This document shows positions 6,281 through 63,580 of a stretch of 64,000 bases of DNA, piece after piece. Made by a program: the position numbers and the translations under genes. The stretch spans positions 5,642,001 through 5,706,000 of the forward strand of contig OZ024757.1 in assembly GCA_964016885.1 (NCBI GenBank). The letters run 5' to 3'. Positions within the stretch are counted from its first letter, which is position 1; the number at the start of each line of letters is the position of its first letter. Under the pieces are notes generated by a model that was not told where the DNA came from, made no database searches, and was given only the letters and a program-made list of their open reading frames with translations. Origin of the DNA: Eledone cirrhosa. Lineage: Eukaryota.

Positions 6281-8783
<2,503 letters not shown>

Positions 8784-11231: not shown

Positions 11232-11850
11232 GGCACTGTCGTGGTATTAGCTGTCAGAAAGAAGGTGACGTCATTCGTCAACCTTCTCAATCCTTTATTT
11301 CCGTATCACTATTCCGTTTATTTACGTTTATGATTTTCTTTATGGGGACCAAATAACCCCGTAATTTTCGAGAGAAACGATAATATACAATCTTATTTAA
11401 CATGTGCATTAAAAACTACACTAACTGTTACAATTGTAATTAACGTGTAAGAACTTAAATGAAAATATAGGTGGCCCTTAAAAGGGCAGGTGTTGAACTT
11501 AAATTTGTTTTCTAACTTGATAACCATGACTTGTTTCAACACCGGCCCTTTTAAGGGCCACCTATATTTTCATTTAAGTTCTTACACGTTAATTACAATT
11601 GTAACAGCTAGTGTAGTTTTTAATGCACATGTTAACTAAGATTGTATATTATCGTTTCTCTCGAAAATTACGGGGTTATTTGGTCCCCATATATTTTTTA
11701 ATAAGTGTATCTCATCGTAAACGTATCTCTTAGAAAATCCTAAACATAAATAAAGGGAATAGTGATACGGAAATAAAGGATTGAGAAGGTTGACGAATGA
11801 CGTCACCTTCTTCTGCTTTCACTTCTGACAGCTAATACCATGACACTGCC
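11232..11850. mobile_element. Foldback MITE, Merlin-type
   Basis: ~270-bp inverted arms; termini GGCA...TGCC; 8-bp TSD aataattg (11224-11231 and 11851-11858). Confidence 0.85.
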
Positions 11851-25628: not shown

Positions 25629-27575
25629 TTAAGATTTCTCCTCTGCATGTATGAGTTTGTGAGTAGTTAGGCTACTTTTCCCAGAGAATGATATACCACA
25701 GATATCACAGTGATATGGCTTGTCTCCTGTATGGGTACGTTTGTGTCTAGTTAAGGTACTACTTCGAGAGAATGATTTACCACAGATATCACAGTGGTAT
25801 GGCTTGTCTCCAGTATGTATACGTTTGTGGCTAGTTAAGGCACTACTTTGAGAGAATGATTTACCACAGATATCACAGTGGTATGGCTTGTCTCCTGTAT
25901 GGGTACGTTTGTGTCTAGTTAAGGTACTACTTCGAGAGAATGATTTACCACAGATATCACATTGGTATGGCTTGTCTCCTGTATGTATACGTTTGTGGCT
26001 AGTTAAGGCACTACTGAGAGAGAATGATTTACCACAGATATCACAGTGGTATGGCTTGTCTCCTGTATGGGTATGTTTGTGTCGAGTTAAGGTACTACTA
26101 TCAGAGAATGATTTACCACAGATATCACAGTGGTATGGTTTGTCTCCTGTATGTATACGTTTGTGGGAAGTTAACTGACTACTTTGAGAGAATGATTTAC
26201 CACAGATATCACAGTGGTATGGCTTGTCACCTGTATGGGTACGTTTGTGTCTAGTTAAGGCAATAGTTTCAGAGAATGATTTACCACAGATATCACAGTG
26301 GTATGGTTTGTCTCCTGTATGTATATGTTTGTGTCTAGTTAAGTGACTACTTTGAGAGAATGATTTACCACAGATGTCACAGTGGTATGGCTTGTCTCCT
26401 GTATGGGTACGTAAGTGTTTAGTTAATGCATCACTTGGCCGGAATGTTTTACCACAGATATCACAGTGGTATGGCTTGTCTCCTGTATGTATATGTTTGT
26501 GGCTAGTTAAGTTACCACTTTGATAGAATGATTTACCACAGATATCACAGTGGTATGGCTTGTCACCTGTATGGGTACGTTTGTGTCTAGTTAAGTTAAC
26601 ACTTTGATAGAATGATTTACCACAGACATCACAGTGATATGGCTTGTCTCCTGTATGTATATGTTTGTGGCTAGTTAAGTTACCACTTTGATAGAATGAT
26701 TTACCACAGATATCACAGTGATATGGCTTGTCTCCTGTATGTATACGTTTGTGGCTAGTTAAGTAACTACTCTCAGAGAATGATTTACCACAGATATCAC
26801 AGTGATATGGCTTGTCTACTGTATGTATATGTTTGTGTCTAGTTAAGGTACTACTTTGAGAGAATGATTTACCACAGATGTCACAGTGGTATGGCTTGTC
26901 TCCTGTATGGGTACGTAAGTGTTTAGTTAATGCATCACTTGGACGGAATGTTTTACCACAGATATCACAGTGGTATGGCTTGTCTCCTGTATGTATATGT
27001 TTGTGGCTAGTTAAGTTACCACTTTGATAGAATGATTTACCACAGATATCACAGTGGTATGGCTTGTCACCTGTATGGGTACGTTTGTGTCTAGTTAAGT
27101 TACCACTTTGATAGAATGATTTACCACAGATATCACAGTGATATGGCTTGTCTCCTGTATGTATACGTTTGTGGTTAGTTAAGTTACCACTTTGATAGAA
27201 TGATTTACCACAGATATCACAGTGGTATGGCTTGTCTCCTGTATGGGTACGTAAGTGTTCAGTTAATGCATCACTTCGAGGGAATGTTTTACCACAGATA
27301 TCACAGTGATATGGCTTCTCACCTGTATGTAAATGGTTGTGACTAGTTAGGTTACTTTTCTCAGAGAATGATTTACTACAGATATTACAGTGATATGGTT
27401 TGTCTCCTGTATGTATAACTTTGTGAGTAGTTAAGGTACTACGTATATTGAATGATTTACCACAGATATTGCAGTGATATGGTTTCTCTTCTCCAACCTT
27501 TGTCATCTCACCAGGAATACTAAACATTTTCGATTGTGTTTCGCATTTAACCTTTTCACTCAATTTATTTTCCAT
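25629..27575 (-). CDS. Tandem C2H2 zinc-finger protein, 22 fingers, 648 aa, no recognisable effector domain
   Basis: 22 x 28-aa [12 protein letters not shown]...HTGDKP units; splice acceptor tttctttcttatttcag| ending at 27753 upstream of the ATG. Confidence 0.95.
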
Positions 27576-30745: not shown

Positions 30746-32790
30746 TTAAGCTGGTCTAAGATTCTCAAATTTAGTTGCTGTTTTGTGTCGACAAAAAATA
30801 GTGTTTTCAATTTTACTGTTAAGAAGAATTTTGTTGTAATTTAAAATTTGGAAAAGTTCCATATTACAGAGACCAAGTGGGACATACCAATTTGATAAGC
30901 CTTTGAGTTTGATAGCTTTGTCCAGCTGATTTTATATTCCATGTTTGCATCTTTGGGTTGCCAGATTTTATTGGTGAGAGTTGTTGTATTTGAGATATTC
31001 CTGTTAGTCATAGAGTGTCTATGTACGTACCACCTTTTCTAAAACTCCCCAGCTGTGGACCCAATGTAATGCCATGCTAAGCTACCTGAATTTATAGTAC
31101 ATAGGTATACTATATTTGTCTCTAGGCATCTATTTTGTAAAGGGCATTTGTCAGGTAGATGGCAGTTACATTTAGATGCTTTTCTATGTCCCGGTTCTTC
31201 TATATGGTTTTGTAGGTTGCTATGTATGGGCTGAGAATTGGGTTTGTTGATGTATTGTGGTGATATGCTCTAACGTGTGTTTGGTTGTGATGATGTTATA
31301 TGCTTATGTTTTGTATTAGGTGTTGTGGTACTTATTTGCGGGCCACTTGTATTATAAATTCTTTTATAGTTAATTTTATGTATGTGCGATAAAATGTTGT
31401 TGGCAGTGGAGTATGATAGTTTGATAGTTTTTCTATTAAAGATTTTATGATATTTATGAATTTTAGGGAAATGTTTGTCAACTAATTTGAACAAAGCGTA
31501 AGGTAGCTTAGTTTTTATAGAGGAGTTAAACATTGGATTGAACCATAAGTAGTTTCTATTTCTGCATCTTCTATAGTTATTAGTGCTCTCTGTATTAGTA
31601 TTCTGTTCTTTTAATTTACGTGCTTGTTGCCAATTTTTATGCTTAGTCCTAGGTTTGTTGTTTCTATAGGTGTGGATGGTGCTATTAATATTAAGTGTGT
31701 TATTTTTTTGTATCTAGTATGTATTTGAGTATCTCTTTATGGCCTACCTTAAGTAAAGCTATGTTGTAGTAGTTAGCGTGTCCATTAAACATTTCTATGT
31801 TAAAAGATAGGTGTGAGATTCTAAGGGATATACTATGTGCTATGGAGTTAATTATGGATTGAGGGTGATTATAGCTATAATCAATGTAAGCTAAATTTTC
31901 ATTATTTTTATGGAAGGGTTCTATTAGTCCTGAGTTAAGGTTGAGCAATACATCTAAGAAGTTAGCTTTTTTAGAGTTGGGTTCAAAAGTGATGTTAAGG
32001 CCTAAATTATTAAAGAATTTTCTAATCTTTTTCCTTAATCTTTCTTAGTTTTGATTATTTAAGTTTTTAGCTTAAAAGTAGTGTATCGTCTCTATAGATT
32101 CCTCCTTGTAGGTTATCAAATTCCCTATGTAAGAAATGTGCTATATAAATTCCAACAATGTCTGTAATTTGGGCTGAATCATTTGATCCCATAGTTATAT
32201 CAAAGTGATTCTGTCTATTTTTTCGTTCCCAGTAATTATTGTCGAATTTAATGATTGTTCTTCTAGCAGCTAGTATTATTTTAATTTCATCTGGTGAATG
32301 GTCAGAGTTTTTTTGTGCAAAGGATAGTGCCTTATTTAGGGTAACTGAGGAAATAGAAGAGTAGTAGTCATTTAAGTCAAATTGTATAAAGTCGTGAGAT
32401 TCACTCTTGTCTAATTCATTAAACCAATCTACTGCTTCATTTGTGTTACCCCAGAGCTTGATTATTAGTTGTTCTTTAATTTATGGTATTATTCTATCTA
32501 GTATAAACTTGCAAATTCTGCCTATATCTGATTTTGGTGGACATATTAATCTAATAGTAGGGTTAGTTTCGAAGTTACATTTATGATCCTTCAGATTAAA
32601 AGTGGGTTTACAAGAGGTTAGAGGTTCTGTTCTATCGGATATTTTAACTTTTTTTACTATTTTAAGACCTTCTTTGTTAAGGCTTTTGAGTGTAGCCGCT
32701 GTAGTTTTCTTGTGTTTTTTATGTAATTCTCGGCATATAAAATTGTTGTATGTATTAAGGCTCATGGTGTATACATTTGATGTTTTGTCT
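30746..32790 (-). pseudogene. PLE reverse transcriptase + GIY-YIG endonuclease, disrupted
   Basis: LKDHK..RLICPPKSDIGRI, TMGSNDSAQ, GIYRDD, FLDV, WFNP, KCNC..KCPL..RCL..NIVY..YIG..KRWYVH, FCRHK; stops and frameshifts. Confidence 0.9.
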
Positions 32791-32967
32791 ACCTTTACTA
32801 TAATATATACTTCTTCTTTCTCCTTCCTTTCCTTTCTTTCTTTACTGTATCTGTCTCCCTTTCTTCCTCCTTTTCTCTCTATATCTTTATTATTAATATT
32901 ATTATTGATGATGTAATTTGAATTTGTAAATTAAATTTGCCGGTTACATATATATATATTTTTTTAA

Positions 32968-33353: not shown

Positions 33354-33420
33354 TATTTTATTATACATATTTCAGAGGTACTGAGCTAACTTCAACAGTA
33401 TGTCCTCATCAGATAAAATA
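33354..33420 (-). ncRNA. Minimal type I hammerhead ribozyme
   Basis: tattttat-CTGATGA-gga..tactg...cagta..tct-GAAA-tatgta-TA-ataaaata. Confidence 0.75.
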
Positions 33421-42738: not shown

Positions 42739-43895
42739 CTAGCAGCAGGACCCGGCGTAGCACGGGGTAGGAAACATGAAATAGCAACACGCATATGCCA
42801 AGATTGAGGAATGTAGCTGTGTACTTTTGAATTCATTTATTCTCAGGGAATGATTGTTCATCTACTGGAAACGTAGAACACCAGCAGGAAGAATCCAGTA
42901 GTAGCGGTGTCAGTGGGTTGATTGCGGAAATCCTGTATGCCAAAAGAGTAAGTAAGTGTTGTAGGGCGATGTATGTCGTAAGTCTGTTCACAAATTACGT
43001 CTCAGTTGGGGAACACACGTCAGTCTGAAGGAGCGACGTAGTCAATAGTGTGAAAACCAAGTAGGTATGTACATTTAAGTAGGGATATTAAGATGACGAA
43101 ATCAGCGTGGCAACGCAGCTGCAGCAGAAGGGGGTCATAGTGCAATTAGCACAAACACTGGGCGGCACTGGTTTACACAGCAACAAAGGTGCGACAAAAG
43201 GAGTCAGTGTGGAATTAGCACAACCGCTGTTCAGCGTACTTGCGCAGGACGTTCATGCTGCAGTGTAGGTGCAACAAAAGGGGTTTTAGTAGAAGTAGCA
43301 CAGGCGTGAGTTTTACGGTGTCAATAACACGGCAACGTACACAGGGCCCGGATTTGTGCGTGATGAAAGTACGAAGCGTCAACAGGGTGCTGACAAATAT
43401 TTTAAGGTCCTCCTCATTTCCTCAACCCCAAGAAAATGATCCTGCTTAAAAGTAAGTAAGTGTTGTGTCGTCTGTTAAATAAACTAAATTTTTCGACGAA
43501 ATATTATACGTTATTTACGATGTTTAAGTAGTGTTTAAATTGAAAATGAAAAAGGGCAAATTATGCCCAATGCTAATTCGTGAATTTCCTAGAAACCATT
43601 AACAGAATCGGAGATCTTTTTGTCCACAGTAATGTGAGAGGACTAACGAATGTGTGCTGCAAATTTTGAGGAAATCGGTTGGATTATATTTAAGTAACGC
43701 CTCAAAAAAGACTAAAAATGCCTAAAAGATGCGGTTTTTCGCCTAATGCGGACCCTAGGGCAGCAAAAGTTAAATTTTTTTTAGCCCATTGCACTTCAAG
43801 AAATATAAGTAACGTATGTGTAATGTTCGAATAAGTCGGTTGGGTACTTCTAGAGTTTTAGGGATTTACACAGACATTTTGTTTTATATACATAT
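42739..43895 (-). mobile_element. Non-autonomous Helitron with long unique interior
   Basis: 3' hairpin ccccgtgctacgccggg then CTAG|T; 5' end similar to the other two Helitrons but eroded. Confidence 0.75.
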
Positions 43896-44078
43896 ATATA
43901 ATAAATACAATATCGGAGAAAGTTTTTTAGCGATACTCCGGCCAAATTCCAACTCACTCAACAAACATTAGGAAATAAATGATTATATTCCCAATTATGT
44001 GTTCGGGGTGCTAACTAAAAGTATTGCGTGGAAAATTGGCTGTATTATTTCAAATGAGACATATCTAATATATCTCTT

Positions 44079-44205
44079 CCCAGACGGACGTCTCGTTTCA
44101 TTATAGGACTCCTACAATTTGGGTGAAATTATACCAGTTTATGTAGGAGCTTGTATACCATCAATAGATATATATTCAAGTGGGCTCCTATAATTCATCA
44201 GTGGG
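44079..44205 (-). ncRNA. Type I hammerhead ribozyme with branched stem II
   Basis: ccca-CTGATGA-attatagga...tcctataat-GAAA-cg(agacgtc)cg-TC-tggg. Confidence 0.7.
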
Positions 44206-44366
44206 GCCCAATAATATAATACTAATATTGATAATCTAACCATCATCAGCATTTAGCGATAATCACGTCCAACTCTTGCTAGCAGGGAAAGTGGACATTT
44301 AAAACAACAACCTGCAAAATTTTATATAGACTTTAGTCTATTTCCATGCCAGTATGGATTGAATGT

Positions 44367-44415
44367 GTGTCACTGATGAAAGATTAACAAATCTTGAAAC
44401 AACACTGTCTGGCAT
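44367..44415 (+). ncRNA. Canonical compact type I hammerhead ribozyme (GUC site)
   Basis: gtgtca-CTGATGA-aagatt(aaca)aatctt-GAAA-ca(acac)tg-TC-tggcat; all three stems pair. Confidence 0.85.
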
Positions 44416-45290
44416 CCCTGTTATATATTATTAGAGGAAAATAGAGACAAATAAATTGCTTTGTTACGAAAAAATAATTTTCTTTGATAGCAAGTCTACT
44501 AAAATGAACATGTTTTCATCTACACCTCTATAAGGAGTAAGATAGAAATCTGATTTTATTTTATTGCATCTCTCCCTCTCTTTTTCTTGCTCTATCTCTC
44601 CCCCCTCTCTCTCTCTCTTACTTGCTGTGTCTCTCTCCCACTTCTACTCACTGAATTCCTATACAAGGTTCTCTTATTCCATTGTTTACTTTCAACTACT
44701 CCCAGTATGTGAGTGGCCAGAAGTAAATAAAAGTTTGAGAAACTTGTTGAAACTATAAAACGAATGAAATGGTAAAAATGCATTACATAATGGAGTTGTG
44801 AAACAAAAACTATATTTTAAACGACACTTAAAACATTTTAAACATCAAAATATTAAAACTTCATAAATATATTTAATACTCATGAGTATTTCAAAACCAC
44901 ACAATCTAAACATAATGTGTTGATTAGCTACCTCAGCTTATAAACGGGTTTTCGATTTTTGCCCATTTCTCAGGCATAAAATAGGAGTTTAGATTATATT
45001 TAGATCAGTTGATATTTGAGTATATATGGTATTTTCTCTGTTATGTCTAATTTAGGGAAAATAGAAAAAATAGAGAGGATAACAAAATATCAAATTCTGG
45101 ATATCACTATATATGATTATCACATTGCTTTAGATTCAGCAACCCTAAGAAAAAGATGAACCATTATATTAATGACTTTCTGTTTCTATTTCAAATGACA
45201 TAAACTCATAAGCTCGGAATTTTACACGCACACACACACACACATACATAAAAAAAGAAGAAATTAAAAGATGGTTAAAAAAGTTCCATA

Positions 45291-45360
45291 TACTTTATTA
45301 TGCGCATTTCGAAAACAACATCATCCTGCGACAAAAATTGTGTTCTCATCAGATAAAATA
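45291..45360 (-). ncRNA. Minimal type I hammerhead ribozyme, same family as 33354/34818
   Basis: tattttat-CTGATGA-gaacacaat...gttgttttc-GAAA-tgcgca-TA-ataaagta. Confidence 0.8.
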
Positions 45361-45518
45361 AGGTAACATGGTATGAGGCCTAAAAACACTTGTCAACAGG
45401 AAAGTGTCATGTCTACATATGACAGAAATATAAGAGTAAGAACAAGATAGGAAAATAGAAGGAAAGAAGGAGAAAAAGGAAAACGAAAGAGAGGAGAGGA
45501 AAAACAAAGGAAAAAGAA

Positions 45519-45574
<56 letters not shown>

Positions 45575-46259
45575 CTTTTGATCAGGAACGCTGTTAAAAT
45601 GAAACAAGCTGTAAATAACGGTTAAAAAGTAAATTGATGAGGTGTATGTGCGATAAAATAAAGCGGTCGATAAAATAAAGTACCAGTAATGCACTGGTTA
45701 ATTGCTGGCCTTGTGCCAAAACGTAGAAACAATTATAGATGGTATTCAAATATTAGAGGTCTAAAATATAGAAACTGGGTATATTATTTTATATTGGGTT
45801 TAAATACTAAAAATTGGATTAAGAAGTGTAAAAATGTATTAATAAAATAAAATAAAAAAAAATAAAATAAAATTAAAATAAGTATAAAACAGATTTTTTA
45901 TAAAATAACATTAAATTAAAAAATAAAAATAGTCTATCTATGTCAAAATTAAAAATGTCTATAAAAAAATCTATATATGTGGGTATTTAATTATTATTTT
46001 ATATCAACAATTAAAGGAAATTGCTAGAATGATTTATAAAGGTAGAAAGACGTATGACGTCATCGAATGTTTGAACGAAAATCTAAGGCTATCGAAAAAG
46101 GGTGAAAGGTTTAAAATATGCTGAGAAACTGAATTAATACATTGTAGAATATATTGAAATATGTGTAAAAATAATATGTGTAAAAAATTAACCGTTATTC
46201 GTGGAATATGTTATAGGACATTAGCTATATACTTTGTGAAAGTGTGTATATATATACTG

Positions 46260-46339
<80 letters not shown>

Positions 46340-46361
46340 GAATATAAATAAATATATATAA

Positions 46362-46410
<49 letters not shown>

Positions 46411-46448
46411 TTTATTTATATATCAATCATCTTTTAACATATATATGT

Positions 46449-47130
46449 GGCATACGTCAAGACGGGCGGTCAGAAAACTGAAAGTAAATTTATTTTCATT
46501 TTCGAACGTCGTGTTTACATTTTGTGTGTGTTTAGATCTAAATTAATGTCGTTTTAACTGATTATATATATATGTCTATGTTTGTGTGTGTGTGTAGTTG
46601 ACGGTTGAGAGAAGAGTACTCAATACCGAAGTAATCTTGTAATGAGGCTTGCAGAATGGTGAGTCCGCCATTCTAGACGCTGCTGCCTTGTAGAAGTCCC
46701 AAATCGAAGCTCTGACACTCTCGTCCCCATCATTCAGCAGGGATTTTGCCAGGCAGCCGCATCATCTCCGTTGGTTGGGCTTCCTATTTGGAAATTGAAG
46801 GTGGGATTTACGTTCATGATGTTGTGGTGCACGAACGGAACTTTGTAGATCCTACGGACCCTGATGTGCACACACAGCTCATAGAGAACACATGGAGCCG
46901 TGCAAAGAAGAAGCTTCGTCACCAGCATGTGCAAGTCTCATTACAAGATTACTTCGGTATTGAGTACTCTTCTCTCAACCGTCAACTACACACACACATA
47001 TACATATATATATAATCAGTTAAAACGACACTAATTTATATCTAAACACACACACAAAATGTAAACACGACGTTCGAAAATGAAAATAAATTTACTTTCA
47101 CTTTTCTGACCGCCCGTCTTGACGTATGCC
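46449..47130 (+). mobile_element. Merlin (IS1595-like) deletion derivative with ~205-bp TIRs
   Basis: Termini GGCA...TGCC, 8-bp TSD atatatgt; internal PGSRIISVGW..Y...HERNFVDP..VHTQLIENTW transposase piece. Confidence 0.9.
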
Positions 47131-47154
47131 ATATATGTGTATATAAAATATAGA

Positions 47155-57768: not shown

Positions 57769-59127
<1,359 letters not shown>

Positions 59128-59929
59128 ATTTCTAGCTAGAGATCTTTACATAAAGGATTCTCACTAATTTTACTGATACATTAAGAAATGAAGATATCGT
59201 TAATAGATGCCATGTATTCTAATATACAGAGTGTCCATAAAAGACTGCAGAAGTCTGCTTTCTTCTTCTACAAGTTGTAATGTAGCATTTAGTTGGTACA
59301 AGTAATAAGACATATGTCAGTGTAAGACTGATCTTGGATGAAGAAAAGGCAAGTGCTTATATATGTGTGTGTGTGTGATTATTGTGGAATATTCCACTAT
59401 TATTATTGTTAAGGTGAGAGAAGCTCTATTCACAATAAAATCCTCAGCTCATAAAACAGACGAATAAGACTTCTATAGTTAAGGTTCTTGTTATTGAGGA
59501 CAGTTCAGGTGACAAGAGAATTAATATCCATAATTTCAAAAGATGAAGGTTAATATATATACATATATATATGTACAGACATACAGTGTGTAGGTATGAG
59601 AGAGAAATAGACGTGTGTGTGTGTGTATAAATATGTGTGTAGGTATTTCACTTCAGATAGAAAAGTTCACAATGTTTGTGTTGTGGTGGAAAAGGAAATA
59701 ATACGTACTTTAGTTGTCAAGACCAAATATAAAGTCAAGAAAAGTTAGTAAAAACTAAATGTTCACTGATTTCTGATTAAAATAATATTTTCCTGTCCTG
59801 TAAAATGTTGAACAACCCCTTCAATATTTAATAATACAGGTGATAAAACAACAACTATAAGGTAAGTAAGTCACCTTATGTTATTTAGAAACATTAACGT
59901 CCACCTTAATATGAAATAATCACCATAAA

Positions 59930-62759: not shown

Positions 62760-63580
62760 CATGTGAGAGAAACCATTCTCTTTGAATGTTACATTAACTA
62801 CACACAAACATATACATACAGCTGGGAAGCCATATCACTTTGATATATTTGGTAAATCTTTCTCTAAATGTTGTGGATTCACTAGACACTAACATATACA
62901 GGAGAGGAACCATATCACTGTGATGTCTGTGGTAAATGCTTCTCTAAATTCTGTGACTTTACTACACACTAATATATACAGGAGAGGAACCATATCACTG
63001 TGGTGTCTGTGGTACCTCACTCTCTAAATGTTGTGGCTTCACTACACACTAACATATACAGGAGAGGAACCATATCACTGTGATGTCTGTGGTACCTCAC
63101 TCTCTAAATGTTGTGGCTTCACTACACACTAACATATACAGGAGAGGAACCATATCACTGTGATATCTGTGGTACCTCACTCTCTAAATGTTGTGACTTT
63201 ACTACACACTAACATATACAGGAGAGGAACCATATCACTGTGATGTCTGTGGTACCTCACTCTCTAAATGTTGTGGCTTCACCACACACTAACATATACA
63301 GGAGAGGAACCATATCACTGTGGTACCTCACTCTCTAAATGTTGTGACTTCACTACACACTAACATATACAGGAGAGGAACCATATCACTATGATGTCTG
63401 TGGTACCTCACTCTCTAAATGTTGTGGCTTCACTACACACTAACATATACAGGAGAGGAACCATATCACTGTGATATCTGTGGTACCTCACTCTCTAAAT
63501 GTTGTGGCTTCACTACACACTAACATATACAGGACAGGAACCATATCACTGTGATGTCTGTGGTACCTCACTCTCTAAAA
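62760..63580 (+). repeat. Zinc-finger-derived satellite, 80-bp unit, ~9 copies (3' remnant of a ZNF paralogue)
   Basis: Period 80 (62881, 62961, 63041...); unit contains acaggagaggaaccatatcactgtgatgtctgtggt = [11 protein letters not shown]; lead-in matches the reverse complement of 25460-25550. Confidence 0.9.

Follow-up and report, generated by a model that had tools for sequence, protein, structure and literature searches.

A type I hammerhead at 44367-44415

The window, i.e. the whole 64,000-nucleotide stretch of Eledone cirrhosa DNA analysed here, contains at positions 44367-44415 a genuine type I hammerhead fold (Table 1). The conserved CUGANGA, GAAA and UH core is present and surrounded by three helices, of which helix I is open-ended. 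As read from the sequence, stem I pairs GTGTCA (44367-72) with TGGCAT (44410-15) over six base-pairs including two G-U pairs, the core boxes CUGAUGA and GAAA occupy positions 44373-79 and 44396-99, respectively, and the GUC cleavage site places C17 at 44409. Stem II (AAGATT/AATCTT, 44380-85/44390-95) is capped by an AACA loop, and stem III comprises three base-pairs, A15.1-U16.1 included (44399-401/44406-08), closed by an ACAC loop. Re-reading every element reproduced exactly the 49-nt hammerhead reported in a preliminary description of this DNA, and a descriptor scan of the window recovered the motif as 6/6/3 bp. The fold is far beyond chance: hammerheads of at least 4/4/3 bp were found in 0 of 300 simulated windows (second-order Markov, 64 kb, both strands), which rules out a chance origin, and loose 3/2/2 matches occurred at a rate of 0.14 per simulated 64-kb window. 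The Rfam hammerhead models did not match the window motif, neither at the gathering score nor at E<=10. When the 49-mer is folded alone, the hammerhead lies 1.0 kcal/mol above the predicted minimum-energy fold. There is no open frame of at least 120 codons between 38817 and 47876, and hence no linked RT/GIY-YIG ORF at the locus, which agrees with the earlier remark that no ORF is nearby.

Such hammerheads number in the thousands in animal genomes, and a single motif of this kind is ordinary. The 3.0-Gb genome contains 67 exact matches to the 28-nt core (reversed control: 0), and a 121-nt query produced at least 43 matches, with the best 40 of 601 candidates scored; the hammerhead is therefore not single-copy. 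The exact stretch 44284-44396 reached a contig depth of ~380-440, compared to ~10 for most other listed contigs, in three contig sets of one sample that is possibly the source sample of the assembly, which corresponds to roughly 40 copies. A search of the flanks for tandem or dispersed copies, as suggested in the preliminary description, revealed dispersed copies and no tandem array at the window locus. Two sets can be told apart among the copies: the close set is ~90% identical to the window across kilobases, the distant one 65-75% across ~200 nt. The distant, or free, family numbers about 1000 candidates in the genome.

Table 1. Features of the hammerhead locus (positions in the window; strand as +, - or, where none applies, a dot).
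Feature	Positions	Strand	Basis or remark
Module A, non-autonomous Helitron, 1.15 kb	42739..43907	-	source of the compound element's 3' end
Helitron 3' end	hairpin 42751-42766, 8 nt from CTAG 42739-42742	-	sequence
~360-bp insert in TA run after module A	43908..44264	-	common only to L004 and L009
Scrap of a very abundant repeat	44265..44300	+	contig depth >10,000
Remnant of the 404-nt unit	44308..44540	+	BLAST -94..+122 around the cut, 72%, to 44506; alignment to ~44540
Orphaned 5' arm of extended stem I	44347..44366	+	loop I triplet at 44364-66
Type I hammerhead core (helices Ia, II, III)	44367..44415	+	predicted cut after C44409
18-nt deletion site, 3' arm of distal stem I gone	44417..44418	+	alignment
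Module B, non-coding captured DNA	44541..45243	.	common to the 20 Helitron-borne stretches examined
Module C, part of a further repeat family (truncated)	45244..46242	-	family also free and longer elsewhere
(TA)n run	46243..46425	.	followed by module D in other copies

The carrier of the close copies

The close copies share a block that extends from 42739 to about 46245. The left end of this block is sharp: A precedes it in 16 of the 16 ends identified in 21 stretches, the terminus reads CTAG in 15 cases and GTAG in one, and the flanks are of 15 different kinds. The same A was found in front of the Helitron end in 19 of 20 further copies. Read on the minus strand, this arrangement matches the canonical Helitron 3' end, i.e. 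a hairpin located ~10 nt before a CTAG that is joined to T (PMC4778049). Among 20 newly found copies with the module A end, 19 consist of module A alone, and one contains modules C and D with the hammerhead region deleted. Given that the hammerhead is missing from all 20, the Helitron moves without it. Among the 18 module-A-only 5' ends listed, at least 10 are of the TC type (TA run, then GA); the window copy has no such end.

The (TA)n run at 46243 was dropped as a candidate for the end of the element once module D turned up beyond it. Module D measures about 430 bp, ends in a Helitron 5' TC end and is missing from the window. It was located downstream in 10 of 20 stretches, mostly ending in a TA run plus GA, and finite stretch length and insertions may contribute to its non-detection in the other ten. 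Module D also occurs alone, so that some of its pairings may be due to chance, and in L049 (oriented 7329-7993) 172-bp units built of module D 5' ends form a tandem array. At the place where module D would be expected in the window, i.e. ~46445-47135, long terminal inverted repeats surround a short decayed coding scrap, an element which we take by eye to be Merlin/IS1595-like. The scrap of abundant repeat next to the hammerhead unit is, again by eye, presumably an RTE-type LINE/SINE tail.

It is known from bats that a 5' end from one Helitron and the 3' end of another can capture the DNA between them (PMC4224331). Judged from its modules, the block appears to be of this type, and the window hammerhead likely sits inside a compound non-autonomous Helitron, to which it is antisense. 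The window copy itself would be immobile because module D, and hence the Helitron 5' end, is missing.

A hammerhead-like motif and a further hammerhead lie within the block. The former is located in the ~360-bp insert on the minus strand (44079-44205); its 9-bp stem II surrounds an insert of 95 nt, it has a GUC site, and two diverged relatives of this motif (71-75%) are located in L045. Module C carries a hammerhead of the type found in Penelope-like elements (PLEs) on the minus strand (45291-45360), with a near-palindromic loop III. Given that the latter is intact in 12 of 20 Helitron-borne stretches, the compound Helitron contains two hammerheads on opposite strands.

The PLE-like character of module C, its minus-strand position 5' of modules A and B, and the variable right-hand extent of the copies could also be explained if the composite had spread by retrotransposition, as a 3' transduction from module C, and not as a Helitron. 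However, such a process would be expected to generate scattered 5' ends, whereas the truncation of module C is at a single fixed position, with (TA)n behind it. In addition, the Helitron CTAG is precisely where the copies terminate, and the ten stretches with module D have a second Helitron 5' end further on. We consider this scenario extremely improbable, and a compound Helitron the likely carrier.

A 404-nt parent family with an extended ribozyme

The distant set defines a dispersed, non-coding head-to-tail unit of 404 nt (34% GC), in which the longest stop-free frame spans 69 codons. The family thereby shows three features of non-LTR retrozymes, i.e. a non-coding unit of ~170-400 nt, GC content <45% and a canonical type I hammerhead ribozyme (HHR). 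We compiled a set of 65 free loci, from which four duplicate and four Helitron-borne loci were left out; 17 of the 30 loci of a further search had been recovered before and were dropped. Free copies continue past the cut site and enter the start of their own unit again; 24 of the 65 loci exceed one monomer by >20 nt, with the longest span at 660-666 nt, and 12 contain an adjacent inverted piece. The 5' ends of the free copies vary. Among the 18 copies that reach +200 past the cut, 11 end at ~+212 into (TA)n, four enter the next unit, and three do neither. Footprints of this kind are what target-primed reverse transcription of circular or multimeric RNA would leave. The family is old, with a mean identity of 82% to its consensus and a complete ribozyme in 10 of the 43 free copies that were not picked via the exact core. 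Two recognisable cores, located 409 nt apart, were detected at a single locus, L202, where the second one is mutated; in L110 the first core is degenerate, and L209, an automatic third 'dimer', was discarded as an unrelated motif. Among the loci examined, which come from the 40 candidates scored per search, the 404-nt unit was represented neither by a long tandem array nor by a young copy that could serve as source, and the 67 exact core matches likewise contained no array. These data support a non-LTR retrozyme-like family as the parent of the window motif, and the 'retrozyme-like element' of the preliminary description has thus found its family.

The same description had also considered a solo pLTR of an autonomous element. 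In this case, the 404-nt unit would be the pLTR of a PLE, and the free copies would be its 5'-truncated stubs rather than products of a circle. Partial tandems, inverted 5'-truncated pieces and microsatellite targets, (TA)n included, have been described for PLEs, and for Naiads especially (PMC8557442), and all of these traits are present in the free family; moreover, a preprint derives retrozymes from pLTRs (10.64898/2026.07.22.740005). However, upstream of the hammerhead the copies enter the 3' part of their own unit and no ORF. A PLE RT fragment was found within 1.5 kb of a free copy at 1 of 65 loci, where it is non-contiguous and on the opposite strand (the queries were the three PLE-like fragments of the window), and the ribozyme is canonical, unlike the minimal form of PLEs (PMC4209133). 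We therefore regard the pLTR as unlikely and the retrozyme-like family as the better supported parent.

The ribozyme of the family exceeds 49 nt. Its stem I is composed of six base-pairs, a UGA/U internal loop and a 17-bp helix. In an alignment of 24 distinct rows, stem I pairing is maintained in 87% of the cells, compared to 28-40% in slid controls, and covariation is weak, as the 10 two-sided pairs were reached by 23 of 500 shuffles; stem II is invariant by construction, owing to how the rows were selected. The triplet also occurs in an unrelated hammerhead in L037, with six pairs between it and the core. A looped helix I permits monomeric type I cleavage (PMC6155905), and a palindromic loop III allows a double-hammerhead mode (PMC4209133). 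In the consensus, helix III together with its loop forms a 10-nt palindrome. Helix III is strictly palindromic in 8 of 52 copies and self-complementary with G-U pairs in 20 of 52, and most other copies are one or two changes short of the palindrome. Given that the family consensus is palindromic, the ACAC loop of the window appears to be a derived state and no design feature. The suggestion that the window ribozyme may act as a monomer since its stem III is non-palindromic does not survive this comparison, all the more so as the distal arm of stem I has been lost as well.

Probable capture, re-copying and decay

In a tree of 84 rows, 21 Helitron-borne copies are located on one side of a branch with support of 100/99 (midpoint root; bootstrap not fully settled; two of the 65 free loci omitted, as no core could be located in them). 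The stem of this clade has a length of 0.17, compared to a median of 0.11 for end branches. Identity amounts to 94.6% among Helitron-borne and 75.4% among free copies. Given that the Helitron-borne copies form one young clade, the sampled copies would go back to one aged insertion, which was captured once and recently re-copied at the DNA level. The flank of the window copy outside the Helitron end is common to 10 of the 19 other loci examined; three of these ten lie on unplaced contigs, where duplication by the assembly is possible. Because these flanks lie outside the Helitron, the ten loci appear to be segmental duplicates.

We counted changes over 20 independent insertions, leaving out the ten segmental duplicates. 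The 12 core letters, the 49-mer and the flanks contained 5 changes in 238, 21 in 972 and 97 in 4177 positions, respectively (Fisher p = 1.0 for core versus flank and 0.9 for 49-mer versus flank; low power, with five core changes). The mutation rate of the core equals that of its flanks, and at this low power there is no sign of selection. Chance and ascertainment can explain how an intact core persisted over a branch of 0.17; selection could do so, too.

The window copy has preserved all core letters together with its three short helices, as have 22 of 30 Helitron-borne loci, compared to the 10 of 43 free copies mentioned above. The remainder of the ribozyme has changed. Of 60 free copies, 45 have TGA as the loop I triplet, where the window copy has TGT; among the 30 Helitron-borne loci it is TGT in 28 and TGA in none, and it is changed in all 30. 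The middle part of stem I is weakened in all Helitron-borne copies. Of the 30 loci (L001-L030), 28 retain the distal 3' arm, which is missing from the window copy and L002; the 18-nt deletion is known from the assembly, in which an error is possible, and contig cover falls away past 44410. In its 111-nt context, the hammerhead fold of the window copy is located 6.6 kcal/mol above the minimum, compared to 0.7-2.4 kcal/mol in three arm-bearing copies and 3.6 kcal/mol in the free consensus; the energy of the fold is -31 kcal/mol in the free consensus versus -13 kcal/mol here. These folding energies ignore tertiary contacts. Because the supporting distal helix is lost, we predict that the window ribozyme, in its genomic context, cleaves inefficiently at physiological Mg2+, while the bare 49-mer would be expected to cut at high Mg2+, like minimal hammerheads. 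Release of a monomer circle is impossible for the window copy because it contains one ribozyme and about 60% of the unit, where a full unit would be bounded by two HHRs. The window copy is probably a fossil passenger.

Taken together, we judge it highly probable that the motif is the fossil of an old retrozyme-like copy that was likely captured in a compound Helitron, re-copied as its cargo and is now a weak or silent passenger. The parent family would have produced multimeric RNA, from which the hammerhead released 404-nt monomers that closed into circles. An RT/endonuclease of Penelope type might have copied the circle into (TA)n microsatellites, resulting in 5'-truncated, over-unit-length and partly inverted insertions. 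One old copy was likely caught inside the compound Helitron and multiplied as DNA cargo, and one Helitron insertion was, as the shared flanks show, amplified a second time through segmental duplication. Loss of module D and of 18 nt from stem I would have followed in the window copy, which could, at most, nick a passing plus-strand transcript after C44409.

A Helitron-borne hammerhead might instead still be active, and have been kept or spread for cutting antisense or read-through transcripts of the element or of the zinc-finger gene cluster that surrounds the window. The intact cores in 22 of 30 loci, the ten further loci that share the window insertion via duplication and the small distance of the 49-mer fold to its minimum would be compatible with such a function. 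On the other hand, core and flanks mutate at equal rates, the loop I triplet is changed throughout, the newly found module A copies have no hammerhead, and the distal arm is gone in the window copy. We consider continued activity very unlikely, and assign equally little probability to a bolder version, in which the Helitron has turned the retrozyme hammerhead into a portable transcript-cutting cassette that still cleaves, has been spread as DNA to dozens of sites and, by duplication, through the zinc-finger cluster, and ends read-through or antisense RNA there. If true, it would provide a case in which a ribozyme exchanged RNA-based mobility for that of rolling-circle DNA, followed by use in the host. 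The fossil passenger remains our preferred interpretation.

The parent family resembles the metazoan non-LTR retrozymes of corals, mussels (350-390 bp) and axolotl in its canonical type I HHR, its non-coding unit of about 400 nt, GC content <45%, head-to-tail continuity and co-occurrence with PLEs (Cervera and de la Pena 2020, PMC7229834). In contrast to these, the copies described here are dispersed, cover 0.3-1.6 units and form no long array among the loci examined; the family is old, and the window copy is a fragment. Dispersed 'solo' monomer retrozymes, called likely non-transposing offspring and proposed to originate from PLEs, have recently been described in vertebrates and four invertebrates (Li, Clavereau, Pollet, bioRxiv 10.64898/2026.07.22.740005). 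In the available text of that preprint, Helitrons are mentioned with respect to distribution and not to capture, and under its two-unit rule no copy examined here would count as 'active'. Compound or chimeric Helitrons, such as HelibatN539 of bats, and Helitron-amplified retrogenes likewise have mixed ends and re-amplify retroposed cargo (Thomas et al. 2014, PMC4224331), whereas the cargo reported here is a ribozyme-bearing retroelement remnant with repeat scraps and not a gene fragment. With the minimal hammerheads of PLE pLTRs the family shares type I topology, a palindromic consensus helix III and partial-tandem or inverted insertions, and it differs from them by its long looped stem I, the 6-bp stem II closed by A-U, the 3-bp stem III and the lack of a linked ORF (Cervera and de la Pena 2014, PMC4209133).

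Each of these ingredients is known, and their combination appears to be absent from the mostly open-access literature searched: neither a Helitron-carried retrozyme nor a cephalopod retrozyme was found in its titles and abstract openings. The published case for copying of retrozyme circles by Penelope-type enzymes is, in the portions of the literature covered, built on co-occurrence and trees. The footprints of the free family, i.e. over-unit length, inverted pieces and a preferred 3' end ~212 nt past the cut that is joined to (TA)n, would add sequence-level support for this process. In addition, capture by a compound Helitron followed by segmental duplication may constitute one route to 'isolated' genomic hammerheads.

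The Eledone genome is dense in type I hammerheads of other families, which we encountered in random 10-kb stretches (L037, oriented 2709, as well as L042, L043, L044, L034 and L049). The window itself contains an inverted pair of PLE-type hammerheads at 33412 (-) and 34826 (+), with a 32-nt stem II region and a near-palindromic loop III. This pair is located upstream of broken RT fragments (frames 31270-32930, minus strand), for which a Pfam search of three PLE-like fragments returned no family. By eye, we take these fragments to be Naiad-like, based on a KR-rich block and a DK motif. Naiads have been reported to be without canonical hammerheads (PMC8557442). The region around the hammerhead is segmentally duplicated, and C2H2 zinc-finger arrays, partly degenerate, are located at 25683-27489, 57808-59145 and 62797-63579. 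Finally, Rfam identified a histone 3' UTR stem-loop at 11539-11583 on the plus strand (40.5 bits), which lies in the centre of a 186-nt inverted repeat.
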